Positions 21,973 to 63,286 of a DNA stretch of 64,000 bases are shown here, piece by piece. Below the pieces are notes generated by a model. That model saw only the letters and a program-made list of their open reading frames with translations. It was not told where the DNA came from and did no database searches. Position numbers and translations under genes: made by a program. Each line of letters opens with the position of its first letter. Position 1 is the stretch's first letter. This DNA comes from an uncultured Gammaproteobacteria bacterium (GTDB lineage: Bacteria > Patescibacteriota > Microgenomatia > UBA8517). The stretch lies in contig CAZWNZ010000001.1 in the NCBI GenBank assembly GCA_964635715.1, positions 248,122 through 312,121 on the forward strand, read 5' to 3'.

Positions 21973-21973
21973 C

Positions 21974-26628: not shown

Positions 26629-26657
26629 TTGACGCCCAAATCCATTCAGGATATAAT
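26629..26657 (+). promoter_or_regulatory. sigma70-like promoter TTGACG-17-TATAAT inside the rRNA spacer
   Basis: Perfect 17-nt spacing; lies upstream of ORF 26815, tRNA-Ala, 23S and 5S. Confidence 0.5.
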
Positions 26658-26780
26658 ACGCTTACCTTGAAAAAGGTAAATCTTTTGAGTTCGGAATTTT
26701 TAATGAGAATCAACTTAATTTCTAAAAAACAAAGCGCGGCCCTGCGTGGTTAACGGAAATTAGTATCTTCTTTTTGAATT

Positions 26781-26808
26781 TACCGGCTCAAAAGCCGGTT
26801 TATTTTTT
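26781..26808 (+). terminator. hairpin plus T-run (attenuator or terminator) just before ORF 26815
   Basis: ccggctcaaaagccgg followed by tttatttttt. Confidence 0.35.
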
Positions 26809-26814
26809 GTCAAA

Positions 26815-27057
26815 ATGAAACACCTGTCCGACAAAGAAAAACTGGAAGCACTTTACATAAAGATAAATGAGGCTGAAACTAAATATCGGGAACGTCTGAA
26901 AAACTTCAGAGGTGTCCCGCACGAATCAGCCATGGGTGAACTTAATTTTTCCGAGCTTAAGGTTCGTGAAGATTTTGTTCGCTCTCTGAGGGAAGAGATC
27001 TCGCAATTAGAGAAAAAACTGGGACTGTCTACAAAATTGTCTCCGCATTTTCCCTAA
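26815..27057 (+). CDS. hypothetical protein encoded inside the rRNA spacer
   Basis: 80-aa ORF. Confidence 0.3.
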   Translation: MKHLSDKEKLEALYIKINEAETKYRERLKNFRGVPHESAMGELNFSELKVREDFVRSLREEISQLEKKLGLSTKLSPHFP

Positions 27058-27064
27058 TAGGTGA

Positions 27065-27137
27065 GGGCTCGAAGTTTATCTGGCTGAACACCTCATTTGC
27101 AATGAGGAGGTAGGCGGTTCGACCCCGCCCGAGTCCA
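27065..27137 (+). tRNA. tRNA-Ala (anticodon TGC) with a G3:U70 pair
   Basis: Acceptor GGGCTCG/CGAGTCC (G3-T70), D stem GTTT/GAAC, anticodon loop TTTGCAA, T arm GGCGG-TTCGACC-CCGCC. Confidence 0.8.
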
Positions 27138-27170
27138 CAAAATTTTTGAGTAGTGGAATATACCGCCACG

Positions 27171-27213
27171 GGGCTTAAAGGTAACTAAGTAGGTTCGATT
27201 CCTACTAAGTCCG
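27171..27213 (+). ncRNA. tRNA-like minihelix (acceptor stem plus T arm only) with G3:U70
   Basis: gggctta-aaggtaactaa-gtagg-ttcgatt-cctac-taagtcc-g; no D or anticodon arm. Confidence 0.3.
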
Positions 27214-27706
27214 CATTAATTCTGTTAGCGCAGAATTCTAGAACGTTAAAATTTGAAGATTTAAGGTTTTTTTAAAATGTGTAGGTAAGTGATAGGGAAT
27301 TTTAGATGAAGAAGTTTTATATTTCTTTTATCTTTTACCCTTTATCTTTTACCTATTATTAGAAGAGGAAGGTCGCGTCCCAAACTCGAATTTATTCGAG
27401 TTGTGTGGGATCGCAAGTAAACAACGCAGACAGTGAATGCCTTGCTTTTCGTCTCCGAAGAAGGACGTACATAGCCACGAAAGTCGCCGGTTAGCTGCTA
27501 CGAAGCTTTGACCCGACGGTGTCCGAATGGGGAAACCCATCCCGCTTTGCGGGATATCTTGAGGCCAAAATGTTGACGCAAGTTAATATATAACTTTAAG
27601 TATGGAAACCACCTGAACTGAAACATCTAAGTAAGGTGAGGAATATAAATCAACGAGATTCCGCCAGTAGCGGCGAGCGAAAACGGAACAGTCTAAACCA
27701 TTGTGC

Positions 27707-27835
27707 ATAGCACAAGGAATGTCACACAAATAAATACCAATAAACCAATAAATACCAATTTACAATGGAAACATTTAGAATTGGGCATTGGTGCACATTG
27801 GTACTTATTTGAAATTTGGCGTTTCCTGCGCTGTG
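27707..27835 (+). other. 23S intervening sequence 1 (5' domain)
   Basis: The 22-nt block cacaaggaatgtcacacaaata is identical to the 16S insertion; shares taccaat repeats and ggaaac...gggcattggt. Confidence 0.6.
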
Positions 27836-28029
27836 CAGGATGGGGTTGTAGGACTCTAATGTGAGATCTCTATTTTAGTAGTAGAACAGTCTGGAATGGC
27901 TGATCAAAGAAAGTGAAAATCTTGTATACAAAACTAAAATAGGCTCTAGGAGTATCCTAAGTACCACGGAACACATATTCTGTGGGAATCCGGGGGAACC
28001 ATCCTCCAAGACTAAATAAGACGAAAGAG

Positions 28030-28066
<37 letters not shown>

Positions 28067-28656
28067 CTGAGTGAGACACTCAATGAAATAGAACCTGAAA
28101 CTGTTTGCGGTCAAACCGTGAGAGCTGGTCGTAAGACTGGTGATCGCGTGCCTATTGAAGAATGAGCCGGCGAGTTTTCAGTTACTTCTTATGTCTAACT
28201 CCAATTTGGAGGGAGGCGAAGGGAAACCAAGTGTGAATAGCGCGTTTGGAGTAACTGGAAGACCCGAAACTGGGTGAGCTAACCATGAGCAGGGTGAGCT
28301 CCGATGAAAATCGGAGGGAGGCCCGAACCCGTTGTCGTTGTAATGACATGGGATGACTTGTGGTTAGGGGCAATATACTTATCGAACCCAGAGATAGCTG
28401 GTTCTCCCCGAAAGGTCTATGGGGACCGTGGTCCGTCACGTTCTGCTGGTTGTAGAGCACTGGCTGGGTTGGAGAGCGCAAGCAATTCAATCTAATCAAA
28501 CTCCGAATACTAGTGTGAGCTATCGGACTAAAAAGCCGCATCGGGCTAAGCTGATGCGACGAAAGGGAAACAACCCTTGACTCTCAGTTAAGGCCTCTAA
28601 ATTACATCTAAGTTTGAAAGGAAGTTTTCTTTCTCAGACAGCCAGGAGGTTGGCTC

Positions 28657-28694
<38 letters not shown>

Positions 28695-28771
28695 TGGTCG
28701 ATTGAGAGGATGCGCCTAAGATTTATCGAGGATAAGATGTATGCCGAAGCTAGAGATATCCGTGCCTTGCA

Positions 28772-28874
28772 CAGGAATGATTAATAAATACCAATAAACC
28801 AATAAGTATCAATCTCCAATTAAAACTGGAATTGGGAATTTGGAATTGGATTATTTGTAATTTGTCATTCCCGT
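28772..28874 (+). other. 23S intervening sequence 2 (helix-45 site)
   Basis: Inserted between ccgtgccttg and agagcgcgggtgtggtaggggagcgttcc; aataaataccaataaaccaataa is identical to IVS 1. Confidence 0.6.
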
Positions 28875-30263
28875 GCAGAGCGCGGGTGTGGTAGGGGAGC
28901 GTTCCAATTGCGGTGAAGGTGAACCGGAAGGTTTGCTGGAGCGGTTGGGAGTGAGAATGTCGGCTTGAGTAGCGTACAATACTAGTGAGAATCTAGTACG
29001 TCGAATGTCCAAGGTTTCCACTGCAAGATTCGTTCACAGTGGGTTAATCGGTTCCTAAGGCGAGGCCAAATGGCGTAGTCGATGGACAATTGGTTAAAAT
29101 TCCAATATATGTGTTAAATCGAAAGATCCCGCAAGGGATGAGCTAGGGATTGACTGAGCAGGAGTTTTGAAGCTTTTTCGTGAAGTAGAGTGCAGAAATC
29201 GAAGTAGTTCTGACTGGAAAATCCGTCAGAATGTTTAATTAAGATGGTGCAAAGTTCTCCGCGAGGAGGGCGATTTCAAACGCTTCAGCTTACAAGAAAA
29301 GATTCGTAGCGAGAGTTAACATATGCCGTACCGCAAACCAACACAGGTGGACTGGGGGAGCACCCTAAGACGATCGAGAGACAAATCCTCAAGGAACTCG
29401 GCAAAAAAACTACCCGTAACTTAGGGAAATGGGTTGTCCAGCGCAAGCTGGATTGCAACTAAAGTTTATTGGTCGACTGTTTATCAAAAACACAGGCCCG
29501 TGCAAAAGCGAAAGCTGAAGTATACGGGCTGACGCTTGTCCAGTGCCGGTAAGTTAAGAGGAGGGGTGTTCTGAACTTGTTTCAGGATGCTCTGAATTTA
29601 AGCTCCGGTGAACGGCAGCAGTAACTATAACTGTTCTAAGGTAGCGAAGTTCCTTGCCAGGTAAGTTCTGGCCCGCATGAATAGCGTAACGAGCTAATAA
29701 CTGTCTTGAGGGTTTACTCGGCGAAATAGCGATGGCTGTGAAGACGCGGCCTACTTCCACATGGACAAAAAGACCCCGTGGAGCTTTACTGCAGGTAGAT
29801 ATTGCTTTCATATTTTTTGATTGTCTAGAATAGGTGGGAGCCGCAAGGCGATCTTGTAATACCACTCGTTGAGAAATGTGAGGCTAACTCAATTCCGATG
29901 GAAACTCGGAAGAGGAACGTGTTTGCCGGGCAGTTTTACTGGGGCGGTACCCTGCCAAATTGTAACGCAGGGACGCAAAGGTTGGCTTTCTACCGATGGA
30001 AACGGTAGTTTTAAGCGTAAAGGTTTAAGCCAGCTTGACTGCGAGGGAGATGTCCCGAGCAGGTACGAAAGTAGGTCTTAGTGATCCTCCGAAGCACAAT
30101 GGGTGTGCTCGGAGCTTAATGGATAAAAGCTACCCCGGGGATAACAGAGTAGTCGCGCCCGAGCGTCCATAGCGACGGCGCGGTTCGCTACCTCGATGTC
30201 GGCTCATCACATCCTGGCGCTGAAGAAGGTGCCAAGGGTCGGTCTGTTCGCCCGTTAAAGTGA

Positions 30264-30301
<38 letters not shown>

Positions 30302-30428
30302 ACTCTATCCTGTGGAAGCGTTGGAATCTTGAGGAGAGCTGGGGACAGTACGAGAGGACCTCCCTGGAGGAATCCCTGGTGTGCCGGTTATTGCGTCAGC
30401 AGTAACGCCGGGTAGCTATATTCCTAAC

Positions 30429-30464
<36 letters not shown>

Positions 30465-30600
30465 TCCAAGATTAGGATTCCATATTAAATCCCCCGTAGA
30501 AGACGGGGTTGATCGGCAGGCACTGGAAGATCTGTAAGGGTTTAAGGTAACCTGTACGAATAGATTGATTCTTGCGATCCCACACATGTGGGGCGCGACC

Positions 30601-30718
30601 TTCCTTTTCTACGAAATAGTACAGAGTACAGGAGTACATAGTACTTAGAAAAACAAAAAATCTAACGTCTTAGTCTCTGTACTTTTGTACTTTGTACTAT
30701 GTACTAGTTTCAAGGCAA
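30601..30718 (+). repeat. 23S-5S spacer with inverted arrays of the AGTACAN heptad
   Basis: agtacagagtacaggagtacatagtact on the plus strand and tgtacttttgtactttgtactatgtact in inverted orientation. Confidence 0.5.
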
Positions 30719-30840
30719 TGTTCTGGTGGTCAGTGCGAAGTGGCACCACCTGATCCCTTTCCGAACTCAGAAGTGAAACGCTTTAGCGCAGACGATAGTT
30801 TACGGGCAACTGTACGCGAAAATATGTCACCGCCAGAACA
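30719..30840 (+). rRNA. rrf: 5S rRNA
   Basis: gttctggtggt...ccgaactcagaagtgaaacg...cgccagaaca. Confidence 0.9.
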
Positions 30841-43803: not shown

Positions 43804-44142
43804 ATGGAAAAACTTAGAATCTATCAAACAGCTTTGGATTTAGTTTTGGAAATCTATAAGCTCATACAGCAAGATTCAAAACTTGCTAGAGATTGGTCGC
43901 TTTGCGATCAAATAAAGAGAGCATCTATTTCTGTGGTTGCCAATATCGCTGAAGGATATCTAAGATCCAAAAAACAATTCAAAAATTACTTACAAATAGC
44001 CTCAGGTTCAGCTAATGAAGTTGTAGCTCACTTGCAAGTGATAACAAAAGTTTATGGAAATAATACCGATAAATTACAAGAATCATACAAAGTTCTTGCA
44101 CGTCAAATAGGTGCATTCTCCAAGACTCTCGGCCAGAGCTAG
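43804..44142 (+). CDS. four-helix-bundle protein (TIGR02436, '23S rRNA intervening sequence protein')
   Basis: VANIAEGYLRSKKQFKNYLQIASGSANEV signature; flanked by repeat copies at 43768-43800 and 44138-44215. Confidence 0.8.
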   Translation: MEKLRIYQTALDLVLEIYKLIQQDSKLARDWSLCDQIKRASISVVANIAEGYLRSKKQFKNYLQIASGSANEVVAHLQVITKVYGNNTDKLQESYKVLARQIGAFSKTLGQS

Positions 44143-44389: not shown

Positions 44390-45115
44390 ATGACAACCTC
44401 AAAAATAATTCCGTTCTACGAAGTTCCAATTGAGCTACTTGTTGCAAAGCAAGAACAATTGGCAAATAATGGCCATCGCCCGTTTTATTCGCCGGATGGC
44501 CAAGTTGCAGGGTTTATTAGCCCGTTTTCCGCGACCCGGCATGTTGCCCAGGTGCAAGTCGATGATGACGGTAAAATCGTCGCTTTTGACTTTGATCAAA
44601 TGGAACGTACTGATGGTCGAATGAATGTTCATGATCCTTGGGGTCATGCAACACCCAACGCAATGGTAGTTGTTTTGGAACGAACCAATGATGGTACGCT
44701 TCTTGTTCACTCGGTAAAGGAAGTCCGTCCATTCATGTATGATCACCGATCGGGTGTCAAAGGCATGACTATCATTGGTGTAACTGGTAAATGGGCAAAA
44801 TCACTGGGTGCAAATCCGGCTGAAACAGCTCTCCAAGGACTGATGGCAGATTCCGGCATTGAAGTCGACGAAGGTTCTGTCGAACTTCTCGGGATTCATA
44901 ATCCCAATCGTGCCTGGGTTGAGACCTGCAACGAAGTCTTCGTGGCGATTTTTAAGCGCAAGATTGTGCCTGTAGCAGATGGTACTCACGATCAGGTCTT
45001 GCCTGATGGTGTTTATCCCCTCGCGGATTTTCCGCTTGGACCAGATGCTTTGGTCAACTCTGTTCTTTGGCTTACCGCCAAGCATTTTGGCTGCATTTCA
45101 TCCAAACCCTTGTAA
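44390..45115 (+). CDS. hypothetical protein
   Basis: 241-aa ORF. Confidence 0.35.
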   Translation: MTTSKIIPFYEVPIELLVAKQEQLANNGHRPFYSPDGQVAGFISPFSATRHVAQVQVDDDGKIVAFDFDQMERTDGRMNVHDPWGHATPNAMVVVLERTNDGTLLVHSVKEVRPFMYDHRSGVKGMTIIGVTGKWAKSLGANPAETALQGLMADSGIEVDEGSVELLGIHNPNRAWVETCNEVFVAIFKRKIVPVADGTHDQVLPDGVYPLADFPLGPDALVNSVLWLTAKHFGCISSKPL

Positions 45116-45299: not shown

Positions 45300-45875
45300 A
45301 TGGACAAACTGGACAGCATCCATCAAGCACATGGTGAGTGGCCACAGGCAGTCAGTCTATCTGAAACTGGAATTTCTTCAAACGATTTATTTAATTCCGA
45401 CCTGACTCAAATTGCTCTTAATTTGGCCGAAAAGAATCCACGTAAGCGTGCCATTGTTCGTATTCATGAAAAACTTAGTGATGAAAATCATTTGATGATT
45501 AATGCAATTTTAGGTGAATCTTATGTTCAACCTCATAAACATGATGAATTAGAAAAAACTGAAATATTTCGGATTATTAAAGGAAAAGCCCTAGTTGTGT
45601 TTTTTGATGAGGAGGGAAGAGTTGAAGATAAAATTGAGATGGATAGTGATCCTGATGGAAGAAAAATTGTGACAGTACGGCCGGGGAAGTGGCACACAGT
45701 GATACCGATGAGTGATGAGACTGTTCTTTTGGAGGCCAAAAAACAGCCTGCCGGCGGCTATAATCCCGAAACAGATAAGGAAATGGCTCCTTGGGCACCA
45801 GATCAGAAAGATATCGAATTCGGACTTAAATACATAATGAAATTAAAGGGAGAGCTTGACATATCAAGAGAGTAG
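45300..45875 (+). CDS. cupin-fold metalloprotein, WbuC-like
   Basis: YVQPHKHDELEKTEIFRIIKGK...VRPGKWHTV...LLEAKKQP cupin motifs. Confidence 0.45.
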   Translation: MDKLDSIHQAHGEWPQAVSLSETGISSNDLFNSDLTQIALNLAEKNPRKRAIVRIHEKLSDENHLMINAILGESYVQPHKHDELEKTEIFRIIKGKALVVFFDEEGRVEDKIEMDSDPDGRKIVTVRPGKWHTVIPMSDETVLLEAKKQPAGGYNPETDKEMAPWAPDQKDIEFGLKYIMKLKGELDISRE

Positions 45876-50283: not shown

Positions 50284-51387
50284 GTGCTGAAATCTATGGA
50301 AAAAAATTTTGAAATTATTCTCGAGATCTGGGAAGAATTAAAAACCTTCTTTTTTGAGTTAATAAATTTTATTTTTAAAAGTTTGCACATTAGTTTCCTG
50401 AAGATCGAAGAAAGAAAGGGCATTGTTGTTACAGCCCTGTATAAGAAAAGAGGTAAACTGTCCAGAACCTTGAGTCATTCGGGGATGGCGGCGATCGCTG
50501 CACTGGGAGTCATGTTGGCACCTCTTATTGCGCAAGAATTTCCCGGAAAATCAGTTGATCCATGGGAAATATCCGCTGCTCCATCAGTACTTTCTGCCTC
50601 AACAGACGATCCGACAGTTGATACACAAATATCTAGTAAGGTAAGGGATAGTATTATTGATTATGTTGTTCAGGAGGGTGATACAGTTGCGTCAATTGCT
50701 GAAAAATTTGGTGTTTCGGAAGATACTATCCGTTGGAAAAATGATTTAACAAAAGACAGAATAAAAATCGGAGAGACTCTTAAAATTTTACCGACGACGG
50801 GTGTTGTTCATACGGTTGTAAAAGGGGATACTGTTTACTCCATAGCTAAAAAGTACGATGCGGTGGCACAGGCGATAGTTGATTTTCCTTTCAATACTTT
50901 TACTAACGATGAGACATTTGAATTAGCAATTGGGCAAACAGTAATTGTACCTGATGGCGTTATGCCTTCTGTCCAGACAACCACCAGAACCAGGCAGATA
51001 ACTCCAAACGCCGGTACCGTAACTGCTTCGGGACAATTTGTTTGGCCAACCAATGGATCCATCACTCAGAGATTCTCTTGGTATCATCCCGGACTTGATA
51101 TTGCCAATCCAAGTGGTCCGACAGTTGTTGCGGCAGACTCCGGTAGAGTTGTGTTTGCGGGTTGGGATTCGACAGGCTATGGATATATGGTTCTTATCGA
51201 TCACGGTAACGGATATAAGACTCGTTACGGACATCTTTCCCAGGTAATGGTTATATCGGGTCAAACTATCGGTAGAGGACAGGCCGTCGGCAGAATGGGA
51301 AATACGGGACATTCGACCGGTACTCACCTTCACTTTGAAATTTACTTTAATGGAGTAAGATATAACCCCCTGAATTACCTCAAATAG
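50284..51387 (+). CDS. LysM-LysM-M23 peptidoglycan endopeptidase
   Basis: Two LysM motifs (GDTVASIAEKFGVS, GDTVYSIAKKY) and M23 motifs HPGLDIA ... GNTGHSTGTHLHFEI. Confidence 0.8.
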   Translation: MLKSMEKNFEIILEIWEELKTFFFELINFIFKSLHISFLKIEERKGIVVTALYKKRGKLSRTLSHSGMAAIAALGVMLAPLIAQEFPGKSVDPWEISAAPSVLSASTDDPTVDTQISSKVRDSIIDYVVQEGDTVASIAEKFGVSEDTIRWKNDLTKDRIKIGETLKILPTTGVVHTVVKGDTVYSIAKKYDAVAQAIVDFPFNTFTNDETFELAIGQTVIVPDGVMPSVQTTTRTRQITPNAGTVTASGQFVWPTNGSITQRFSWYHPGLDIANPSGPTVVAADSGRVVFAGWDSTGYGYMVLIDHGNGYKTRYGHLSQVMVISGQTIGRGQAVGRMGNTGHSTGTHLHFEIYFNGVRYNPLNYLK

Positions 51388-51456
51388 AGTAATATTATTA
51401 GCTTTTGGTGCCTAGATTCTAATTCCTAATTTCTAGCTACTAGCTACTTGTTGTCC

Positions 51457-51617
51457 TAGTGAGTGGACTCGCCGGGAATTGTGTGCACAATATCACACCC
51501 GAGCACTATCGATTCCCAAGAGGGCACGAACTTTAGTGAGTGGACTCGCCGGGAATTGTGTGCACAATATCACACCCGAGCACTATCGATTCCCAAGAGG
51601 GCACGAACTTTAGTGAG
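51457..51617. repeat. two tandem 77-bp direct repeats plus a third partial copy; each begins with the 3'-terminal 17 nt of tRNA-Ala(CGC) plus 7 nt of trailer
   Basis: Units at 51457-51533 and 51534-51610 are identical by eye; the third copy at 51611 runs into the tRNA. Confidence 0.85.
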
Positions 51618-51688
51618 TGGACTCGCCGGGAATTGAACCCGGAACTTATCAATGCGAATGATACGGTATACCGTTTGCCTACGAGCCC
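51618..51688 (-). tRNA. tRNA-Ala (anticodon CGC) with G3:U70; the D arm is atypical
   Basis: Reverse complement: GGGCTCG ... anticodon stem-loop TATCA-TTCGCAT-TGATA ... T arm CCGGG-TTCAATT-CCCGG ... CGAGTCC-A. Confidence 0.65.
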
Positions 51689-51897
51689 GAATCGAAACCT
51701 ATATTCTTTTGGGTATTGAACCAAATCTGGCTAGATTATATCATCTTACTTTTCCTTCTGTAAGAAGTTTTGAGCGTGCTAGGCCTCAAAGGGGATTGAC
51801 AGGGGGTGTAAAATGTGCCAAATATTTTATATATAGTATTAAGTATTTGTAAATACTTGTAAAAACAAAGCCATGATCCTTTGTAAAAACTGCCAAA

Positions 51898-53745
51898 ATG
51901 CCCAAAAATACATATACAGTTAAAGAGGTTGCCAATCTTCTGGAATTTTCTACAAATACAGTTTACAAGTATCTTGATGATGGCAGTATTAAGTCGGTTC
52001 GTTTTGGGAGTGAGGGCCGATTCAGGATTCCCAGGACAGAAGTCGAACGTCTTCTTCAAGAGAGAGGGAAAACTTTACCTGAAGATTCAACCATATCAAA
52101 AAACCAAAATTTACATGGAATAAGAGGAATCCCTAGTTTATTTGATTGGTTTGTTGCATTTTTATCTATTTCGATAGGGTTTTCAATTTTTATCTTTCCT
52201 GTTCCAAGCGCTGTTCGGGTGGTCTTTGATCTAAATAAGTTTGTCATTCCGCTTCAGGTGATTTTATTGCTTGGTGGTTTTCTCATCTTGGTCTTGGATA
52301 TGTTTAGGATGCATGACAGCCGCCTACGCAAATCTATAAATTTAATTGTTGGAATTGACTACTTGGTAACAGCTCTTGTGTTTGCTTTTGCGGACAATTT
52401 TCCCTTGACCGTCGGTTATTTGGCGGTTGCATTTATTGTTATATTGTCAGTTTTTATAAAAATGGGCCAATATACAAGATTTCTGCTTTTTATAAACCTA
52501 TTGCTTGTTTTTCTGGGGATAGGAGTTTTGGGTTGGCCTGATACGTTTTTTCTTGCCGGTGTAATCGGAGTAAATTCAAAAAACTTAATAATTTTCTTTT
52601 CGATATGGTCACTTTTGATGATATTTAATGTTTACATGACATATTTTGCAATCAGAAAAAATAAACACCTTGTTTGGTTTCTTGCATTTCCAACAGCTCT
52701 AACATCTCTTTTGTATGCAACGATTAGTTTTACACAAGGGCTTTGGGCTAAGGCGATTTATTGTGTTGTTTTGTCGTCTTTTGCCGTAATTTTCCCCTTT
52801 GCTGACGAATTTGAAGCATTTACTCTGAAGTCAAAAAAAGAGGTGGCTGCCAGTTTTGCATGGCTTCTTGGTCTTTTCCTGGTCGGATCACTCATGCTTT
52901 ACTATATCTTTCGTTCATTTCAAAGTTATGGCTTCTTAGAACTGACTAATAGAGTCGATACCGCTAGTGATATTGTCACAAATTTCATGGATGGAAATAT
53001 CGCAAAGATCTCTGCATTTGCTGTCGACGAGGAGTTGATCGGTGCTATAGAAAACTATTCCGGGGACAATATCAATTTGGCAAATAATAAATTGAAACAA
53101 CTATACCAAGCGTCCAATTGGTCGATTCGAAGAGTGGTGTTAGTTGATAAGAACGGGATAATTCTCGATACATATCCTCTGAACCCATCAAGTCAGGGTG
53201 TAGATATTAGTAAACGTGACTATTTTGAAAGCGTTAAGGTAGGTGGTCAAACTTTCGTGTCGGGGATCGAGCAACCAAGCTCATCAGGACTCAGCCCTGT
53301 GGTTTTGGTTTCAGTTCCCATAATCGATTCTAGCGGAGATTTTTTGGGAGTTGTTATGGGAGATACCGATTTGGATGAACTTACAAGAAGAGTTAATCAA
53401 ATTAAATTTGGACAAAGTGGAAGTTATTTATTAGTAGATCAATTGGGTAAATATATCATTCCACCAACTAAGGATCAGATAATGGCAAAAGCCTCTGCCG
53501 GAAGTCCCGCATCGATGGTAGTTTTGGGTGAAAAAGGTACTTTGCAAGGAGAAGATTCTTTGGGAGAACTTTCTTTAATTGCCTATGTAAAAGTTAATAA
53601 ATACAGTTGGGGTATAGTGGCTCAACAACCGGTTGATGAGGCATTCAATCCATATAGCAAAACTGTCTTTATCACGTTTCTGATATATGTAACAGCAGGG
53701 GTAGGAAGTTTAATTCTTGTATTTTCGTCACAGAGAAAGCAATAA
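51898..53745 (+). CDS. fusion protein: excisionase-family HTH, then a polytopic membrane domain, then an extracytoplasmic Cache-like sensor domain and a final TM
   Basis: N-terminal VKEVANLLEFSTNTVYKYLDDGSIKSVRFGSEGRFRIPRTEVERLL (HTH_17 / excisionase-like); about 10 TM; the C-terminal ~230 aa look like dCache; last TM VFITFLIYVTAGVGSLILVF. Confidence 0.5.
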   Translation: MPKNTYTVKEVANLLEFSTNTVYKYLDDGSIKSVRFGSEGRFRIPRTEVERLLQERGKTLPEDSTISKNQNLHGIRGIPSLFDWFVAFLSISIGFSIFIFPVPSAVRVVFDLNKFVIPLQVILLLGGFLILVLDMFRMHDSRLRKSINLIVGIDYLVTALVFAFADNFPLTVGYLAVAFIVILSVFIKMGQYTRFLLFINLLLVFLGIGVLGWPDTFFLAGVIGVNSKNLIIFFSIWSLLMIFNVYMTYFAIRKNKHLVWFLAFPTALTSLLYATISFTQGLWAKAIYCVVLSSFAVIFPFADEFEAFTLKSKKEVAASFAWLLGLFLVGSLMLYYIFRSFQSYGFLELTNRVDTASDIVTNFMDGNIAKISAFAVDEELIGAIENYSGDNINLANNKLKQLYQASNWSIRRVVLVDKNGIILDTYPLNPSSQGVDISKRDYFESVKVGGQTFVSGIEQPSSSGLSPVVLVSVPIIDSSGDFLGVVMGDTDLDELTRRVNQIKFGQSGSYLLVDQLGKYIIPPTKDQIMAKASAGSPASMVVLGEKGTLQGEDSLGELSLIAYVKVNKYSWGIVAQQPVDEAFNPYSKTVFITFLIYVTAGVGSLILVFSSQRKQ

Positions 53746-53785
53746 ACCGACAAATAAATTGGAAAAACAAAAGTTAAAAAATAAA

Positions 53786-56700
53786 ATGGCGGGAAAAAAG
53801 GAAAAATATCAAGCGGGAATAACACCGCTTTTAGTTTTAATAACAGTGGCAACATCTTCAATCCTGGTGTTTACCGGTGGATTAACGTTTAATAATTTGA
53901 AAAACAAGGGAATATTAAATTTTACGGATCCAACTCTTAGAAATATTATTAGCCAACAAGCTGATTATTTGGATTCCTCCAAGCTTAACAAGTCACGCAT
54001 TGAAGGAGGCCTTGTTGGAACAGTACTTTTGCCGGACGGATCATACTCGGCTTATAAGATTCTGGATGGGAACATAGAAAGTAAAGGATCGAAGTTTACC
54101 GGTGAGGTAAGGATTTCATTTTTTTCCGATGATGTAGGGCTTAGTAATTACACAGACGGAAACATTAACCCATTTTATTTAATGGATGGGACTAAAACGG
54201 TGGGGGTAATTGTAGACAGGATGCTTGCGAATTTGAACGATGGGGATACAAGTCATGCAATTAAAATATTAAAAGGAACCGTTAAAAACAATTCTCTTAC
54301 AGGAGAATTTGTAGCCCAGACGTTGGATACAGGATATTATATTGGAGGTTTTGTTGAGGATGATGGTCGAATAACGAGTGCTACAGTACTCACCGGTGCT
54401 CCGAGGCTTACGGAAGCTCAGATTTCGATAGCAGAAAATGCTCTTTCAGTTCTGCCTTTATTTAAAAATGTTACCGCTGACCTTGCCACACCTAGCGATG
54501 CCAACATTTTAGGAGAGTCAACCATTGCTACATCAAAATCTGATTTAGGGAAGCTAAATAAGCCGGTTTTTAATAAAAAAACAGGTACATGGACTTTCGT
54601 TGGGTCAGGAGATGGGGGAGCGGTTTCAACCTCTGCAATGCAGGGAGTTGTGAATTATATTCAAAATATCGCCGAAACCATTTCGACATCGCCTTCTGCA
54701 GGACAGGTTGTACAGCAAATTGTCCAGAATGTTGTTCAGGGTATAAGTGAAATAAAAAGTGCAAATTCAAAACTAACTGTATCGACAGAAAACAATGTCT
54801 CAACTCTTTCACTTGATCTATCCGGGATTACAGCATCGGGGGTAAATGACGGATCAGTTAATCCCTCAGGACTCGTTCATTCAAATACCCCCATAGACGG
54901 CCAGTGCTTGACCTACAACAGTTCTACAGGAGGTTTTACATGGAGTTCTTGCGGTTCGGGTGGAGGAGGAACAATAACCGATGTAATAGCCGGTGATGGT
55001 CTGGTGGGCGGAGGAACAACCGGAAGTATTGACTTGGCGATTAATCCGCAAACAGGCGGGGGATTGGAAGCGGCCACGTCAGGAATTTCTTTAAACAGAG
55101 AATGTGCAGATGGAGAAATTCTGAAATGGACAGAAAGCACCTCCTCTTGGGATTGTGCTGCAGACAACGGAGGAGTGGGGGGGGGAGTTTCAACTCTCCA
55201 AGTTGACGACTCGACCATTGTTTCGTCAGCAACTGTGATTGATTTTTTGGGTTCAGATTTTGATTTAACAAATTCGCCGACTGGTGAGGGTAATTTGTCA
55301 ATTGACTACACTAACTCCAAAATAGTCAGAAGTGATCAAAATCAATCAATAAACGGCACCTGGACATTCTCTACGGCTCCTGTTATCTCAACAATTTCAA
55401 ATACTGGAGTCCTGACGCTTCCGACTTCAACAGATACTCTTGTAGGCAGAAATACCAGCGACATATTGACCAATAAAACAATCACAGCGGGATCAAATAC
55501 TATTTCGGGTCTTACAGCAAGTAATCTAACCGCCGGTGATTTTTCGACTAAGATTAATTCCGGTACTTATTCAATTAATATTTCGGGCAATGCCGGAACT
55601 GTTACAAATGGTATTTATACAACAGGAAGTTATTCCAACCCTTCCTGGATCACAAGTCTTTCTCCTGCAAAAGTTCTTCCCGACCAAACAGGAAACAATG
55701 GAAAGGTCCTTAGTACAAATGGTTCGGCTTTGTCCTGGATCACCGATTCTTCAGGGGTTGCCTGGGGAGCAATCACAGGGACTTTGTCAGACCAGACAGA
55801 TTTAAATACAGCCCTTTCAGGAAAACTTTCAACAACTGGATCTGCCGCCAATTTGACCAATTTCCCGACATTCAATCAAAACACAACTGGAACTGCAAGT
55901 AATATCACAGGAGTACTTGGTGCCATATCATTTCCGGCTCTTGATGGAGATGTGACAACTATACAGGGAGATCTGACAACAACAATTGCCAGTGGGGCAG
56001 TAACTTTAGGTAAGATGTCCAGTTTGGCGGCAAATTCAATAATCGGTAATAATACGGGAAGCTCGGCAACACCGGTTGCATTAACAACCACACAAGTTAA
56101 GTCTTTGTTATCAATTGCAAATACTGATGTGTCAGGATTGGGTACAATGTCTACCCAAAATGCAAATAACATATCCATTACGGGCGGAAGCATCTCTGGG
56201 CTTAGCTCAGTTGGGGCGACTACGTTCACGGGTGCATTGACGGGTAATGCAAGTAGTGCCACAACTGCCACTACCGCAACCACAGCCAACGCTCTCGCCA
56301 ATTCAGATTCTGCGGGTCAATCCGCAATCACAGCCATTAATTCGGCTACTGCGGGCACCCTTAACACAGCACGTCTTAACTCGTCTGTTACAACCCAGGG
56401 AAATACATTTAACGGAGTTTCCCAACTGGTTAAACTTGACACATCAGGATATCTTCCGACTATTAATGGATCATTATTAACAGGACTTGCCAAATCTCAA
56501 GTTGGCCTTTCTTTAGTTGAAAATACAGCCCTTTCTACTTGGGCGGGGACTACTAATGTAAATACAATTGCGGATAAAACAGTCACTTTAGCCAGAATGG
56601 CTGATATGGCAACTGCGTCATTCCTCGGAAGAAATACTGCAGGAACAGGATCACCTGAAGTTCTATCAATTTCGACTGCTAAATCAATACTATCCCTTTC

Positions 56701-59700
56701 TACGGGTGATATTTCAGGTCTTGGAACGATGGCCACTCAAAACTCAAACAATGTTTCCATTTCCGGAGGATCTTTATCGGGTCTAACCTCAGTTGCTTCC
56801 ACCACTTTTACAGGTGCATTAACCGGAAATGCCTCAACAGTTACAAACGGAGTCTACACCAATGGTTCCTATTCAGACCCTTCCTGGATTACAGCAATAT
56901 CTCCAACTAAAGTTTTGCCAGATCAAACAGGACAAAATGGAAAAGTACTTTCAACTAACGGTTCAACTTTATCCTGGATTACCAACTCATCAGGTGTGGC
57001 TTGGGGAGCAATCACAGGGACTTTGTCAGACCAGACAGATTTAAATACAGCCCTTTCAGGAAAACTTTCAACAACTGGATCTGCCGCCAATTTGACCAAT
57101 TTCCCGACATTCAATCAAAACACAACTGGAACCGCCGCAGGACTTTCATCAGTGTTGGTTTCAACCATGGGTGGATCAGGAGTGAATAATGCTGGAACTC
57201 TAACCTGGGGAGCAGGTGGAACTTTAGGAACAGCGGCCTATACCGCCAGTACCGACTATGCAACTTCAGCCCAGGGAACATTGGCAACAAATGCATTACC
57301 ATCGGCGTCATTCACTGATGCGGCGGTTACGGGAAAACTTTTGACAGGTTACATTAGTGGTGCAGGTTCAGTTTCCGCCACCGACACAATTCTTCAAGCC
57401 ATTCAGAAACTGAACGGAAATGATGCCACAAATGCTAACTTAACGGGAGTTGTTACCTCAATCGGAAATGCAACATCCATTGCCGATGGTGCAATTACTA
57501 ATGCAATGCTTGCAAACGGTGCTGTTGCCAATCTTTCAGGCACGAACACAGGCGACAATGCGGTAAATTCCAATTACGCTTCCGATTATCGTGCAGCTAA
57601 TTTTGTTGCGGGGACAAATTATCTAACTCCTACAGGATCAGCCGCCAGCCTAACCAATTTTCCAATTCTCAACCAAGATACAACGGGGAATGCGGGAACG
57701 GTTACAAACGGGGTATATACAAGCGGCAGTTACTCAGATCCAAGCTGGATTACTTCGCTTTCACCGACAAAAGTCCTTCCTGATCAAACAGGACAAAATG
57801 GAAAAGTACTTTCAACTAACGGTTCAACTTTATCCTGGATTACCAACTCATCAGGTGTGGCTTGGGGAGCAATCACAGGGACTTTGTCAGACCAGACAGA
57901 TTTAAATACAGCTTTATCAGGCAAATTAGGTACCGGACTTACATCTGCCAACGTCTTTGTAGGTAACGGATCGGGTGTTGCGACAGGAGTTTCCATGAGT
58001 GGAGATGTAACAATTGATAATACCGGGGCTACGACTATTGGAAATTCCAAAGTTACACTTGGAAAAATTGCAAGTATTGCAAATAATACCATTCTGGGAA
58101 ATAGATCGGGTAGTGCGGCAGCACCCTCCGAACTTTCTGCGTCGGATGTTAAAAGTATTCTATCGTTGTCAACCTCTGATATCTCAGGTCTGGGAAGTAT
58201 GGCAACTCAGAACGCAAATAGCGTTTCTATATCAGGTGGATCTTTATCAGGTCTTACTTCAGTTGCTGCAACTACATTCACAGGTGCTCTGACGGGCAAT
58301 GCATCTACTGTTACAGGTCTTTCCGTCACAAGCGGCAAGACCTTAACTGTCCAAAAATCAATGACACTTACATCAGCCGATGACACAGGTGTCTACACAT
58401 TCCCAACAGGAACAGCCACACTTCTTTCAACAACAGGATCAGCAGCCAGCCTTACAGACTTCCCAACATTTAATCAAAATACAACAGGTACTGCTGCAAA
58501 TATCACGGGAGTTTTGGGTGCAAGTTCTTTCCCAGCCATGTCAGGCGATGTTACAAACACACAAGGAAGTTTAACTACGGCCATTACTTCCGGGGCGGTC
58601 ACTTTAGGCAAAATGGCTAATTTAGCAGCCAACTCCATCATAGGCAACAATACCGGGAGTCCTGCAACACCTGTTGCTCTTACCAATACTCAAGTTAAGA
58701 CCCTTCTTTCTATCGCCAATACCGATGTTTCAGGCCTTGGAACAATGTCTACCCAAAACTCCAACAATGTCTCAATCACAGGCGGCTCATTATCTGGTCT
58801 TACATCGGTTTCTGCAACAACATTTACCGGTGATTTAACAGGTAATGCCGGAACTGTTACAAATGGAGTTTATACAAATGGTTCGTATTCAGATCCTTCT
58901 TGGATCACAGCTCTTTCCCCAACAAAAGTCCTTCCTGATCAAACAGGACAAAACGGAAAAGTATTGGGTACTGACGGATCCAATCTTTCTTGGGTAACCA
59001 ACTCATCAGGTGTGGCCTGGGGAGCAATCACAGGAACATTATCCGATCAAACAGACTTAAATACCGCATTGGGGCTAAAAGCAAATACTTCCAGTCTTGG
59101 GACAATTTCTTCTCAAAATGCTAATGCAGTTAACGTCACAGGGGGAACAATCGCCGGACTGACAGGATTTTCAATCAGATCATCAGGTTCAGGTGCTTTT
59201 GATTTAACGATAAACAATACCGAAAACTTGACGGCAGGTCGGGCTCTTACAATTACAACAGGAGACGCTGCAAGAACTTTGACATTGACGGGCGACTCAA
59301 GTATTTCAGGCACGAACACAGGTGATAATGCGGTAAATTCCAATTACGCTTCCGATTATCGTGCAGCTAATTTTGTTGCAGGAACGGATTATTTAGCACC
59401 GAGTGGAAGCGCTGCCAGTCTCACTAATTTCCCGACATTCAATCAAAACACAACTGGAACCGCAAGTAATATCACAGGAGTACTTGGTGCCACATCATTC
59501 CCGGCTCTTGATGGAGATGTGACAACTATACAGGGAGATCTGACAACAACAATTGCCAATGGGGCAGTTACCTTAGGCAAAATGGCTAACCTTGCCGCAA
59601 ACTCAATAATAGGAAATAACACGGGAGACCCGGCAACACCAATCGCTCTGACTGCTACTCAGGTAAAATCTCTTCTTTCCATTGCAAATACTGATATTTC

Positions 59701-62700
59701 CGGATTGGGGACCATGTCTACCCAAAATTCCAACAATGTTTCAATTTCTGGAGGTTCATTATCTGGTCTTACTTCCGTTTCGGCTACAACATTTACAGGG
59801 GCACTAACTGGAAATGCCAGTTCAGCAACTACTGCCACAACTGCGACAACCGCAAACGCTTTGGCAAACACCGATTCCGCAGGACAATCTGCTATTACAG
59901 CAATCAATTCAGCTACAAGCGGAACGATTAACGCTTCAAGAATTGCATCTCTCCCATATATTTCAACAACCTTAAATTCCGGAAATGTATTAGTAGGGAA
60001 TGGAAGCAATGTTGCAACGGGTGTATCAATGAGCGGGGATGTAACGATTGACAACACCGGAGCTACAAGTATAGGAAACGGCAAAGTAACTTTAGGAAAG
60101 ATTGCCAATATTGCAAATAGTACAATTCTTGGAAATAATTCAGGGAGTGCAGGAGCACCAATTGCATTAACAGCCTCACAAGTTAAATCGGTTCTTGGAA
60201 TATCAACAGGTGATGTATCAGGTCTTGGAACCATGGCTGCACAAAATTCCAACAGTGTTTCGATTTCTGGTGGATCGATCAGTGGTGTGACTGTTGGAGG
60301 AACCGCTACGGGGTTATCAATTTCAGGATCGTCAAACACTTTATCAAATATCGGCAACTCCAGCCTTACCAATTCTTCAGTCACAATTAACACCAGCGGG
60401 ATCCTGTCGGGCGGCGGAAGTTTATCACTTGGGGGAACTCTCAATCTTTCTGCAACCGAGGCAGATACTCTTTCTGCAGTTACAAACAGAGGAGCGTCAA
60501 CCTCTGATGGTATTACTCTTTCTTCGGCCTCTCCGTTAACTCTTTCTGATTCTGCTCCGGTCTTAACTTTGGGCACAGGTGATGCTGAAGGTGTACTAAC
60601 CATCAAAGATTCTAATGGCACACCACATACACTTTTAACTTTAACTGACATAGGTACAACTGGTAATTTGTCGGTTACAGGCACACTTAATGGAGCAACT
60701 ATCACGGGTGGTTCTTTATCGGCAACCGCAGTTAATGGAGTTACAACAGGAAATATTGTTTTGACAAGTGGTTCGTATTCCAATCCGAGCTGGATTTCAG
60801 GACTTACAGCCAGTCACCTAACGGCAGGAGATTTTTCTTCTAAAATTAATTCCGGAACTTATTCTATTGATATATCAGGAAATGCATCAACTGCAACAAC
60901 TGCAACAAGCGCAACAAGTGCAACTTCTGCCACCAGTGCAGACTCAGTTACAGGACTATCAGTTACGGCAGGCAAAACTCTTACCGTACAAAAATCTATG
61001 ACATTTACGTCCGCTGACGATACTGGGGTTTACACTCTTCCGACGGGCACAAAAACGCTTGTATCGACAGATGTTTCAACTCTTTCCTCCCTGACATCAA
61101 TCGGAACCTTAACTGATCTTACGGTGACAAATGCAATTACCGGTTCGGTTACGGGCAATGCCGGAACTGTTACAAATGGTATTTATACAACAGGAAGTTA
61201 TTCCAACCCTTCCTGGATTACAAGTCTTTCTCCTGCAAAAGTCCTTCCTGATCAAACAGGACAAAACGGAAAAGTATTGGGTACTGACGGATCCAATCTT
61301 TCCTGGGTAACCAATTCTTCAGGTGTTGCCTGGGGAGCGATAACGGGAACTCTTTCTGATCAAAGTGATCTAAATACAGCTCTTTCAGGAAAGCTTAGTA
61401 CTTCTTTAACTTCAGCCAATATCTTTGTTGGTAATGGGTCTGGAGTGGCAACAGGTGTTGCCATGAGTGGGGATATCACAATTGACAACACAGGAGCGAC
61501 AACAATTGGTAATTCCAAAATTACTCTGGGGAAGATTGCCAACATCGCAGATGGAACCATATTAGGAAATAACTCAGGAAGTAGTGGAGCTCCAATTGCT
61601 CTTACCGCGTCTCAAGTTAAATCGCTTCTTTCTATCGCCAACACCGACGTATCAGGCTTGGGGACTATGTCCACTCAAAATGCTAACAATGTCTCAATTA
61701 CAGGTGGAAGCATGTCAGGATTAACGTCTGTATCAGCAACTACATTTACAGGGGCACTAACTGGAAATGCCAGTTCAGCAACTACTGCCACAACTGCAAC
61801 AACTGCGACAACTGCAAACGCTTTGGCAAACACCGATTCCGCAGGACAGAGTGCTATTACTGCTATAAATAGTGCAACAACCGGTACTATTAATGCGGCC
61901 AGAATTGCATCTCTTCCTTATATCTCAACATCCTTGGCTTCGGCCAATATAATCGTTGGTAATGGATCAGGAGTTGCCACTGGTGTTGCCATGAGTGGAG
62001 ATATAACTATCGACAATACCGGAGCAACAACAATTGGAAACAGTAAAGTCACCCTTGGAAAGATTGCAGATATGGCAACAGCCTCATTTATTGGAAGAAA
62101 TACTACAGGAACAGGTGCTCCTGAGGTTCTTTCAGCCTCAACTGCCAAATCCATCCTTGCCATTGCCAACACAGATGTATCAGGTTTAGGGACCATGTCT
62201 ACCCAAAATGCCAATTCGGTGTCAATTTCTGGAGGATCAATCGGCGGAGTGACAATAGGAGGGACTGCATCAGGTCTTACCCTCGCCGCGGGAAGCAATA
62301 CTTTAAGTGGAATAACAGCATCCAATATGACAGCGGGGGATTTTTCGGGCGTAGTTAATACAGGAAGCTATTCCATTAATGTATCAGGTAGCGCCGGATC
62401 AGTTACGGGACTTTCTGTTACAGGAGGTAAAACTCTAACTGTTCAAAAATCTATGACATTTACGTCTGCTGACGATACTGGGGTTTACACTCTTCCGACG
62501 GGCACAAAAACACTTGTATCAACAGATGTTTCAACACTTTCTTCTTTAACTTCGGTCGGAACATTATCAACTCTGGGTGTCTCAGGTGCAATAAGCGGTG
62601 CGACTTCTACAAATACTATTAATGGAATAATTATTAATTCGGGAGCCGTCTCGGGTGTTACAACACTGGGAGCATCCAGTACTGTGACTATCGGAAGCGG

Positions 62701-63286
62701 CGGAAATACTTTTACATTTAACCCCGCAAGCGGTCCAACCTATGCAGGTGCAGCCAGACCTGACAGACGGGAAGAATTGATTCCCGAATTCCCCGGAGCT
62801 GTTTTAACCGGTAGTGGAACAGGTACTATGACATCTGATTTCTGTGCAGCATCAGCGGGTGTTGGTGGACTTACCGCAACCAATACTACGGTTTGTAACA
62901 CCTCAGGAGACACACACAATTATTATAATTGGACAACTTCTCAAGGGACTGCTCAAACATATTCAATCTATTTGAAATGGAGAATCCCGGATAATTTCTC
63001 GGCATGGGATGCCAGTAATTCAGTTCAAGCGTATGCTAAAAGGAGTGACGCCACAAATGGGCATGTAAATATAAAAGTTTACGATACTGCAAATGCTCTA
63101 AATAATTCCGGCGGAACTGAAGTTGCAGGAACTGCAAATACCTGGGTGCAAAATGGAATTAATATATCCGGCGGTACTTGGACAGCCGGTAGCTACATGA
63201 CTATCCAGATAGATATTACGGCAGCTGCAAGTGGTGGAGTGACGGATGTGGGGGAAATCAATCTTAATTATTTCACTACGAACTAG
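53786..63286 (+). CDS. giant (~3170 aa) modular repeat surface protein: N-terminal signal anchor, shuffled repeat modules, C-terminal jelly-roll/lectin-like domain
   Basis: Single ORF; recurring modules NPSWITxLSPxKVLPDQTGQNGKVL, SSGVAWGAITGTLSDQTDLNTAL, QNANNVSI(T/S)GGS(L/I)SGLTSV and VQKSMTFTSADDTGVYTLPTGT; several copies are nucleotide-identical. Confidence 0.7.
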   Translation: MAGKKEKYQAGITPLLVLITVATSSILVFTGGLTFNNLKNKGILNFTDPTLRNIISQQADYLDSSKLNKSRIEGGLVGTVLLPDGSYSAYKILDGNIESKGSKFTGEVRISFFSDDVGLSNYTDGNINPFYLMDGTKTVGVIVDRMLANLNDGDTSHAIKILKGTVKNNSLTGEFVAQTLDTGYYIGGFVEDDGRITSATVLTGAPRLTEAQISIAENALSVLPLFKNVTADLATPSDANILGESTIATSKSDLGKLNKPVFNKKTGTWTFVGSGDGGAVSTSAMQGVVNYIQNIAETISTSPSAGQVVQQIVQNVVQGISEIKSANSKLTVSTENNVSTLSLDLSGITASGVNDGSVNPSGLVHSNTPIDGQCLTYNSSTGGFTWSSCGSGGGGTITDVIAGDGLVGGGTTGSIDLAINPQTGGGLEAATSGISLNRECADGEILKWTESTSSWDCAADNGGVGGGVSTLQVDDSTIVSSATVIDFLGSDFDLTNSPTGEGNLSIDYTNSKIVRSDQNQSINGTWTFSTAPVISTISNTGVLTLPTSTDTLVGRNTSDILTNKTITAGSNTISGLTASNLTAGDFSTKINSGTYSINISGNAGTVTNGIYTTGSYSNPSWITSLSPAKVLPDQTGNNGKVLSTNGSALSWITDSSGVAWGAITGTLSDQTDLNTALSGKLSTTGSAANLTNFPTFNQNTTGTASNITGVLGAISFPALDGDVTTIQGDLTTTIASGAVTLGKMSSLAANSIIGNNTGSSATPVALTTTQVKSLLSIANTDVSGLGTMSTQNANNISITGGSISGLSSVGATTFTGALTGNASSATTATTATTANALANSDSAGQSAITAINSATAGTLNTARLNSSVTTQGNTFNGVSQLVKLDTSGYLPTINGSLLTGLAKSQVGLSLVENTALSTWAGTTNVNTIADKTVTLARMADMATASFLGRNTAGTGSPEVLSISTAKSILSLSTGDISGLGTMATQNSNNVSISGGSLSGLTSVASTTFTGALTGNASTVTNGVYTNGSYSDPSWITAISPTKVLPDQTGQNGKVLSTNGSTLSWITNSSGVAWGAITGTLSDQTDLNTALSGKLSTTGSAANLTNFPTFNQNTTGTAAGLSSVLVSTMGGSGVNNAGTLTWGAGGTLGTAAYTASTDYATSAQGTLATNALPSASFTDAAVTGKLLTGYISGAGSVSATDTILQAIQKLNGNDATNANLTGVVTSIGNATSIADGAITNAMLANGAVANLSGTNTGDNAVNSNYASDYRAANFVAGTNYLTPTGSAASLTNFPILNQDTTGNAGTVTNGVYTSGSYSDPSWITSLSPTKVLPDQTGQNGKVLSTNGSTLSWITNSSGVAWGAITGTLSDQTDLNTALSGKLGTGLTSANVFVGNGSGVATGVSMSGDVTIDNTGATTIGNSKVTLGKIASIANNTILGNRSGSAAAPSELSASDVKSILSLSTSDISGLGSMATQNANSVSISGGSLSGLTSVAATTFTGALTGNASTVTGLSVTSGKTLTVQKSMTLTSADDTGVYTFPTGTATLLSTTGSAASLTDFPTFNQNTTGTAANITGVLGASSFPAMSGDVTNTQGSLTTAITSGAVTLGKMANLAANSIIGNNTGSPATPVALTNTQVKTLLSIANTDVSGLGTMSTQNSNNVSITGGSLSGLTSVSATTFTGDLTGNAGTVTNGVYTNGSYSDPSWITALSPTKVLPDQTGQNGKVLGTDGSNLSWVTNSSGVAWGAITGTLSDQTDLNTALGLKANTSSLGTISSQNANAVNVTGGTIAGLTGFSIRSSGSGAFDLTINNTENLTAGRALTITTGDAARTLTLTGDSSISGTNTGDNAVNSNYASDYRAANFVAGTDYLAPSGSAASLTNFPTFNQNTTGTASNITGVLGATSFPALDGDVTTIQGDLTTTIANGAVTLGKMANLAANSIIGNNTGDPATPIALTATQVKSLLSIANTDISGLGTMSTQNSNNVSISGGSLSGLTSVSATTFTGALTGNASSATTATTATTANALANTDSAGQSAITAINSATSGTINASRIASLPYISTTLNSGNVLVGNGSNVATGVSMSGDVTIDNTGATSIGNGKVTLGKIANIANSTILGNNSGSAGAPIALTASQVKSVLGISTGDVSGLGTMAAQNSNSVSISGGSISGVTVGGTATGLSISGSSNTLSNIGNSSLTNSSVTINTSGILSGGGSLSLGGTLNLSATEADTLSAVTNRGASTSDGITLSSASPLTLSDSAPVLTLGTGDAEGVLTIKDSNGTPHTLLTLTDIGTTGNLSVTGTLNGATITGGSLSATAVNGVTTGNIVLTSGSYSNPSWISGLTASHLTAGDFSSKINSGTYSIDISGNASTATTATSATSATSATSADSVTGLSVTAGKTLTVQKSMTFTSADDTGVYTLPTGTKTLVSTDVSTLSSLTSIGTLTDLTVTNAITGSVTGNAGTVTNGIYTTGSYSNPSWITSLSPAKVLPDQTGQNGKVLGTDGSNLSWVTNSSGVAWGAITGTLSDQSDLNTALSGKLSTSLTSANIFVGNGSGVATGVAMSGDITIDNTGATTIGNSKITLGKIANIADGTILGNNSGSSGAPIALTASQVKSLLSIANTDVSGLGTMSTQNANNVSITGGSMSGLTSVSATTFTGALTGNASSATTATTATTATTANALANTDSAGQSAITAINSATTGTINAARIASLPYISTSLASANIIVGNGSGVATGVAMSGDITIDNTGATTIGNSKVTLGKIADMATASFIGRNTTGTGAPEVLSASTAKSILAIANTDVSGLGTMSTQNANSVSISGGSIGGVTIGGTASGLTLAAGSNTLSGITASNMTAGDFSGVVNTGSYSINVSGSAGSVTGLSVTGGKTLTVQKSMTFTSADDTGVYTLPTGTKTLVSTDVSTLSSLTSVGTLSTLGVSGAISGATSTNTINGIIINSGAVSGVTTLGASSTVTIGSGGNTFTFNPASGPTYAGAARPDRREELIPEFPGAVLTGSGTGTMTSDFCAASAGVGGLTATNTTVCNTSGDTHNYYNWTTSQGTAQTYSIYLKWRIPDNFSAWDASNSVQAYAKRSDATNGHVNIKVYDTANALNNSGGTEVAGTANTWVQNGINISGGTWTAGSYMTIQIDITAAASGGVTDVGEINLNYFTTN

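Follow-up and report, generated by a model that had tools for sequence, protein, structure and literature searches.

The locus described here lies in a 64,000-nucleotide (64-kb) stretch of DNA, which was analyzed as a whole and is referred to below as the window. A tRNA-Ala(CGC) gene on the minus strand is followed at its 3' end by a short repeat array and stands between two protein-coding genes on the plus strand. We use A for the 25-nt block that includes the tRNA 3' end and B for the filler between copies of A. In plus-strand order, the features are as follows.

50296..51387, plus strand: flanking gene for a protein with LysM and peptidase M23 domains, converging on the tRNA and orthologous in all relatives.
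51388..51456, strand not applicable: AT-rich spacer of 69 nt (33% GC) that separates the array from the M23 stop codon.
51457..51481, minus strand: A3, second displaced copy of the tRNA 3' end and trailer (repeat search).
51482..51533, minus strand: B, distal copy, 100% identical to the proximal copy (TRF; repeat search).
51534..51558, minus strand: A2, first displaced copy of the tRNA 3' end and trailer, 100% identical to A1 (repeat search).
51559..51610, minus strand: B, proximal copy, a 52-nt filler with 50% GC that holds a GTGTG-N8-CACAC hairpin.
51611..51635, minus strand: A1, the native 25-nt block, which spans T-loop C56 through discriminator A73 and the trailer CTCACTA (repeat search; reading of the sequence).
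51618..51688, minus strand: intact tRNA-Ala(CGC) gene, 71 nt (ARAGORN; Rfam RF00005).
51735..51764, minus strand: sigma-70-like promoter match, CTTACA-18-TATAAT with a TG, 47 nt upstream of the tRNA.
51898..53745, plus strand: flanking gene for an HTH_17 and dCache_1 membrane protein of 615 aa, a conserved chromosomal gene.

The tRNA gene was called on the minus strand at 51617-51688 by ARAGORN and matched the full-length Rfam model RF00005 at 51618-51688 with 57.7 bits, in agreement with an earlier sequence-only reading of this DNA. It has the G3:U70 pair, and CCA is not encoded. In the sense of the tRNA, the gene body is followed by the array in the layout A-B-A-B-A, the 69-nt spacer and the stop codon of the convergent M23 gene. 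TRF reported a perfect tandem array at 51457-51635 with a period of 77, 2.3 copies, 100% matches, 0 indels and a score of 358, while a repeat search resolved it into two 77-nt copies (51457-51533 and 51534-51610, as the earlier reading had them) and three 25-nt copies (starting at 51457, 51534 and 51611), all 100% identical. The total length is 2x77+25 nt, or 179 bp, and the units run head to tail without a single difference, as in VNTR-type loci.

Block A, with the plus-strand sequence TAGTGAGTGGACTCGCCGGGAATTG, comprises 18 nt of tRNA and the 7-nt trailer, and its start falls within the T-loop TTCAATT, between positions 55 and 56 (window position 51635). Filler B occurs in the window only at 51482-51533 and 51559-51610, and no further site was found within 3 mismatches. 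The earlier reading was right about the 7-nt trailer and one nucleotide off in both lengths, with a block of 24 nt (17 nt of tRNA plus 7 nt) and a filler of 53 nt. The third partial copy that it described is real as a sequence but is the tRNA's own 3' end with its trailer, which leaves two displaced copies rather than three. The 77-bp repeat exceeds chance: the 17-mer of the tRNA end, TGGACTCGCCGGGAATT, occurs three times in the window versus 0.13 expected, and the filler taken as a 53-mer occurs twice versus 0 expected. The previously described hairpin was found twice, at 51481-51498 and 51558-51575, where a 14-nt near-palindrome, ATTGTGTGCACAAT, overlaps it. This near-palindrome spans each A|B junction and consists of the last 3 nt of A continued into B. 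The array contains no ORF and is not coding. Since nothing terminator-like separates the tRNA from the array, the two may be co-transcribed.

Because a perfect array of 179 bp cannot be counted from short reads, the number of fillers in the window is a minimum; there are at least two. The tandem junction can be followed in two Logan contigs from run SRR8925806 (k=31 assembly) that carry the flanking genes. Contig L002 ends with A followed by TGTGC and contig L001 starts with AACTT followed by A. These ends are the two 30-mer nodes of the k=31 graph that branch only given B-A-B in the reads, and with a single filler neither node would branch. Since both contigs end exactly at these nodes, we infer from the contig ends that the B-A-B junction exists in the reads. 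The junction is real, and the run may share reads with the source of the window. An assembly or library artefact, in which a chimeric read or a mis-resolved repeat masks a true locus with one filler or none, is highly improbable. The window is indeed metagenome-assembled, reads of 150 bp cannot span the array with its flanks, and shared reads would leave room for such an error. However, two contigs break at both nodes that need B-A-B k-mers, and an error would more likely have underestimated the copy number than invented it.

Three orthologous loci (L003, L007 and L009-L011) were compared with the window, and orthology on both sides of the tRNA was confirmed by alignment. The order of LysM/M23 peptidase, tRNA-Ala(CGC) and HTH/dCache gene is shared among these loci of the closest homologues. 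In L003 (72% aa identity), which belongs to a MAG labelled Ca. [quoted passage not shown] L007 (69% identity) has a 34-nt spacer between M23 and tRNA, with which the first ~30 nt of the 51388..51456 spacer align weakly, and L009-L011 (54% identity) have the tRNA inverted and alone; neither has the array. A second copy of its own tRNA 3' end was found at no relative's locus. As the array is missing at these orthologous loci, the insert of ~230 bp that separates the tRNA from the M23 stop codon is lineage-specific. The T-arm and acceptor sequences of tRNA-Ala(CGC) differ in each relative.

The gene next to the tRNA had been taken for an excisionase-type HTH. A role as excisionase (Xis) was rejected for this gene, which encodes a 615-aa membrane sensor composed of HTH_17, membrane segments and dCache_1, has 61 homologues and stands beside the same tRNA in relatives without the array. 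An Xis gene that marks a mobile element would instead encode a small HTH_17 protein standing alone, would be linked to an integrase and would be missing from empty loci. Its nearest non-self homologue is just 72% identical, and an identical protein was found in one Logan sample only. The gene is uninformative on mobility, and "excisionase family" labels on HTH_17 proteins should not be taken as markers of mobile elements.

Several other features of this neighborhood were recorded during the comparison. The orthologous tRNA-Ala(CGC) of L009 (9759-9830), L010 (9759-9830) and L011 (8096-8167) lies on the opposite strand between the same M23 and HTH/dCache neighbors, and this arrangement indicates that a small inversion of the tRNA gene alone took place in the history of this lineage. 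A block that is strongly conserved in all three genomes (window 51784-51850, L003 ~255-320 and L007 ~1540-1600), GGGGATTGACAGGGGGTGTAAAAT...TTTTATATATAGTAT, lies upstream of the HTH/dCache gene and is probably the promoter or operator region of that gene. Directly downstream of the HTH/dCache gene lies an ORF of 3189 aa (window 53717-63286) that is built of long internal repeats with nearly the same sequence, as would fit a surface protein. Relatives carry large ORFs at this position as well (1929 aa in L009 and 1529 aa in L013).

Filler B is compositionally foreign to its surroundings: its GC content is 50%, compared to 33% in each adjacent spacer and 40.6% in the window. Smith-Waterman alignment with shuffling revealed no significant similarity of B to the tRNA body or its 5' part, the leader, the flanks, the rest of the window or the loci of relatives (p = 0.4-0.75 for the tRNA 5' part and leader), and the possibility that B derives from the tRNA body, the leader or the flanks by divergence was rejected on these grounds. 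The combination of deviant GC content and no local similarity indicates that B is imported rather than locally duplicated DNA. If arbitrary DNA had simply been duplicated in tandem, only complete copies would be expected. The length of 2x77+25 nt, with its terminal redundancy of 25 nt, implies a precursor of the form A-B-A, in which inserted sequence was flanked on both sides by a duplicated 25-nt stretch of the target.

An A-B-A precursor could also have formed independently of any integrase or mobile element, by stalled or template-switched replication at the T-arm hairpin or by break repair that captured a filler, and slippage would then have doubled the unit. Hairpin loops are plausible endpoints of slippage. 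The 100% identity of the copies includes the 7 nt of non-functional trailer, as would be expected after recent local copying, and it thus reaches into an unconstrained part of a fast-evolving, lineage-specific tRNA. This requires either an attP highly matched to the host or an endogenous origin. Recombinase genes are likewise missing from the window, and no donor element appeared in the collections searched (see below). The integrase-independent route nevertheless seems unlikely to us, though it deserves serious consideration: B has no local template in the tRNA, leader, flanks or window, its GC content is unlike that of local intergenic DNA, and plain tandem duplication gives no 25-nt redundancy around novel sequence.

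At its far end, B can partly pair with A through GGGAAT/ATTCCC and three 3-bp blocks, in a pattern of 3-bp stems every 5 nt, and each unit can therefore be folded into a long interrupted hairpin. On the plus strand, the predicted fold of the unit has -26.1 kcal/mol (z = -3.2; 0/200 shuffles as stable), and the effect persisted when A was fixed and B shuffled (p = 0.008). The fold of the tRNA-sense strand was not significant (z = -1.2, p = 0.13), and alignment gave no significant inverted match between B and A either (p about 0.2). The complementarity is suggestive only.

One possible role of such a structure is that of a selected element, with A-B hairpins acting as a bidirectional terminator or insulator or as an RNA stabilizer between the convergent M23 and tRNA genes, or affecting 3' processing of the pre-tRNA. 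We regard this as improbable. The plus-strand fold, the high GC content of B, as in structured RNA, and the lack of a canonical terminator between the convergent genes would fit such a role, but the strand that carries the tRNA sense does not fold significantly, the inverted similarity is not significant, and the units have no Rfam match or tRNA-like score. Nothing comparable was found in relatives, and the spacer of zero length in L003 indicates that no conserved function is needed there. The array is also a single occurrence, which offers no covariation.

Several specific identities of the array were tried and rejected. The idea that the end of B repeats A in inverted form (as core-type sites or a TIR) was discarded given the alignment p value of about 0.2 and folding that is significant on one strand only. 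The unit is not a tRNA gene, pseudogene, tRNA-like or minihelix RNA, since Rfam/Infernal at E<=10 sees only the single true tRNA; as for a minihelix, the acceptor 3' strand and discriminator are not presented in a tRNA-like manner in the MFE fold, and the GTGCTCG motif in B resembles a 5' acceptor strand but is unused in the predicted fold. The closeness of the unit length of 77 to that of tRNA plus trailer (78) appears to be a coincidence. A CRISPR array was rejected because the two would-be spacers do not differ, the repeated block is the end of a tRNA and Pfam scans show no cas domains. An attC site (no R'/R'' motifs) and a PBS-like site (no complement to CCA) were rejected as well.

The sequence-only reading had proposed looking for an integrase nearby, and none was found in the window. 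Among 30 ORFs of at least 130 aa in the window, no Pfam hit to PF00589, PF00239 or PF07508 was obtained, so that neither a tyrosine nor a serine recombinase is represented. PHROGs returned nothing for the 10 unannotated ORFs, and a re-scan with code 25 (TGA as sense) revealed no hidden large ORFs. Overall, Pfam, PHROGs and Logan Pfam marks showed no recombinase, phage-like or ICE gene in the window. Its genes are ordinary (ABC/MacB/HlyD transporter, RadA, S1, sortase, Rho, SIMPL, EamA), together with a VirD4/TraG-like ATPase inside a stretched rRNA operon. A search for the filler elsewhere had been proposed as well, and it gave no match in the collections covered. No exact match to A (25-mer), the two halves of B or the 18-nt tRNA end was found in IMG/VR, and none to a 30-mer of B in JGI metagenomes, where a 20-mer of A matched unrelated high-GC contigs only (L004-L006). 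The array found nothing among GenBank phages and PLSDB plasmids by blastn in a distant setting.

One of these unrelated high-GC contigs (L005, 1-1783; Ga0207797_1041752) has a tRNA-Ala(CGC) gene at 1693-1764 on the minus strand. A perfect 76-nt direct repeat (1-76 and 1631-1706) spans the last 14 nt of this tRNA and its trailer, and two more displaced 3'-end fragments (63-79 and 138-154) lie just 75 nt apart. This contig is an independent case of tightly spaced tRNA-end fragments with almost no cargo between them.

Alternatively, the array could still be active, either as a minimal, non-autonomous att cassette or as a landing pad of tandem attB sites, which a recombinase encoded elsewhere in the genome integrates, excises or amplifies in trans. 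It would then be a live recombination hotspot or landing pad at the tRNA-Ala T-loop rather than a dead scar. This is decidedly improbable. The att-like geometry of A, the near-palindrome ATTGTGtgCACAAT at every A|B junction and the perfect identity of the units, which suggests recent activity, are in its favor, but the 64 kb carry no recombinase and B is found nowhere else in the window or in the collections searched. A double-stranded circle of 77 bp is, moreover, a physically implausible intermediate. The landing-pad function, raised in the sequence-only reading, drew no support from anything tested here.

The array was compared with known systems for classification. The Islander definition of a tDNA island comprises a full tDNA and, on the same replicon, a cognate terminal fragment downstream in the same orientation, with an integrase between them and a length of 2-200 kb (PMC4383910). 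At this locus, the tDNA (51618-51688) is accompanied by two 100% identical fragments (51534-51558 and 51457-51481), both on the minus strand, both downstream and both including the discriminator and the 7-nt trailer. Such displaced same-orientation 3' fragments beside an intact gene favor integration, and together with the lineage-specific insert and foreign filler GC they uphold the att-type signature seen in the first reading. The block starts at T-loop C56, and the T-loop is one of the accepted crossover sublocations along with the anticodon loop and the T/acceptor junction. However, the copies are separated by 52 bp (in units of 77 bp) with no integrase between them, far from the 2-200 kb range, and the locus is therefore not classifiable as a tDNA island.

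Likeness to tDNA islands and prophages nevertheless extends beyond the order of an intact tRNA gene and same-orientation copies of its 3' end. The attP core of mycobacteriophage Ms6, which also targets tRNA-Ala, has 26 bases including a 7-base T-loop (PMC1762012), compared to a block of ~25 nt that starts in the T-loop here. The differences are that our locus has no integrase, no cargo and no cognate element found, and that its "island" of 52 bp is well below the 2-kb Islander minimum. [quoted passage not shown] This 3'-end fragment is serially duplicated downstream and some of the intervals have no integration module, as in our array, but the islands there are non-identical, of kilobase scale and accompanied by the serine recombinase DsiB, whereas the window has two identical 52-bp fillers and no recombinase.

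CIMEs, the att-flanked remnants of ICEs or IMEs without recombination genes (PMC5704250; PMC3146451), resemble the array in that attL- and attR-like repeats flank DNA without integration or transfer functions. They differ in being kilobases long and in lying beside, or sharing att sites with, identifiable ICEs, while no partner was found for the array in the window or in viral, metagenome, phage and plasmid collections. Bacterial minisatellites and VNTRs that arise by slippage are similar in their perfect head-to-tail copies and would accommodate the 77-bp period, but slippage accounts for the second unit only and not for the first A-B-A around foreign sequence. The description that fits the locus best is that of an extreme, CIME-like remnant between att sites that turned into a minisatellite.

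The explanation that we consider best, with a probability of roughly 0.5, is Campbell-style integration at a T-loop att site, followed by deletion down to 52 bp and a later doubling of A-B by slippage. The established way in which such an arrangement arises at tRNA 3' ends is Campbell-type integration of a circle carrying the same block, which regenerates the tRNA gene and displaces the original end (PMC4383910). In this model, a circular element would have carried an attP containing the 25-nt block A, from T-loop C56 to the tRNA end plus 7 nt. Its recombination with the tRNA gene would have restored an intact gene and moved the original 3' end downstream, in the order tRNA-A, element, A; A3 would then be the original attB-side copy that abuts native downstream DNA. 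The interior of the element, including any integrase gene, would have been deleted down to 52 bp, with B as a fusion of leftover attP arms. Finally, slippage or unequal crossing-over between the 25-bp repeats, 77 bp apart, would have produced the second A-B unit and thus A-B-A-B-A.

The last of these steps would be an easy one. Flanking homology of 25 bp is enough for RecA-independent slippage, and slippage or unequal exchange is expected to be frequent once 25-bp repeats exist. We infer all three steps (integration, deletion and duplication) from the A-B-A form at a tRNA 3' end, the start in the T-loop and a block length like that of known cases. "Scars of repeated integration and excision", as the array had been called, are unlikely in that wording: precise excision leaves no scar, so a single remnant that was later duplicated better explains the 100% identity of the units. 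Counting against integration are the absence of an integrase, recombinase, phage or ICE gene from the 64 kb, the absence of a donor element from IMG/VR, JGI metagenomes, GenBank phages and PLSDB, and the extreme shortness of a 52-bp remnant. In its present state, the array is probably a neutral, length-variable (VNTR-like) scar with no current function.

Additional observations were made elsewhere in the window. The rRNA operon is stretched over 18374-30838, with 16S at 18374-19969, tRNA-Ile at 25147, tRNA-Ala(TGC) at 27065, 23S at 27410-30580 and 5S at 30722. The 23S region of 3171 nt compared to a model of 2925 nt indicates insertions in the 23S. The 5.2-kb gap between 16S and tRNA-Ile holds minus-strand ORFs for the VirD4/TraG-like ATPase (21974-24109) and a PT-repeat protein (20295-20963). 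A gene for a "23S rRNA-intervening sequence protein" (PF05635, E = 3e-23) lies at 43804-44142, 13 kb from the 23S, and this gene and the neighboring ORFs 44390-45115 and 45300-45875 are missing from the syntenic block of L009-L011. The 31 main ORFs of the window end in TAA (17), TAG (12) and TGA (2). Since this usage fits and reading TGA as sense yields no new large ORFs, the standard bacterial code (code 11) applies, though the nearest named relative is labelled Ca. Gracilibacteria.

The array shows how displaced tRNA 3' fragments can persist nearly free of cargo and then act as a minisatellite that breaks short-read assemblies; in other respects it is a genomic scar of an ordinary kind. Provided that the integration reading holds, the 25-nt att core would be a probe for the elements involved, which the model expects to carry the signature ...GTGTGATATTGTGCACAC-[A]-AAGTTCGTGCC... 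beside a recombinase gene. To our knowledge, few integrative elements have been documented in the CPR/Patescibacteria lineage. Under the same condition, the locus would provide indirect evidence of site-specific integrative elements that target tRNA genes in these ultra-small uncultured bacteria.
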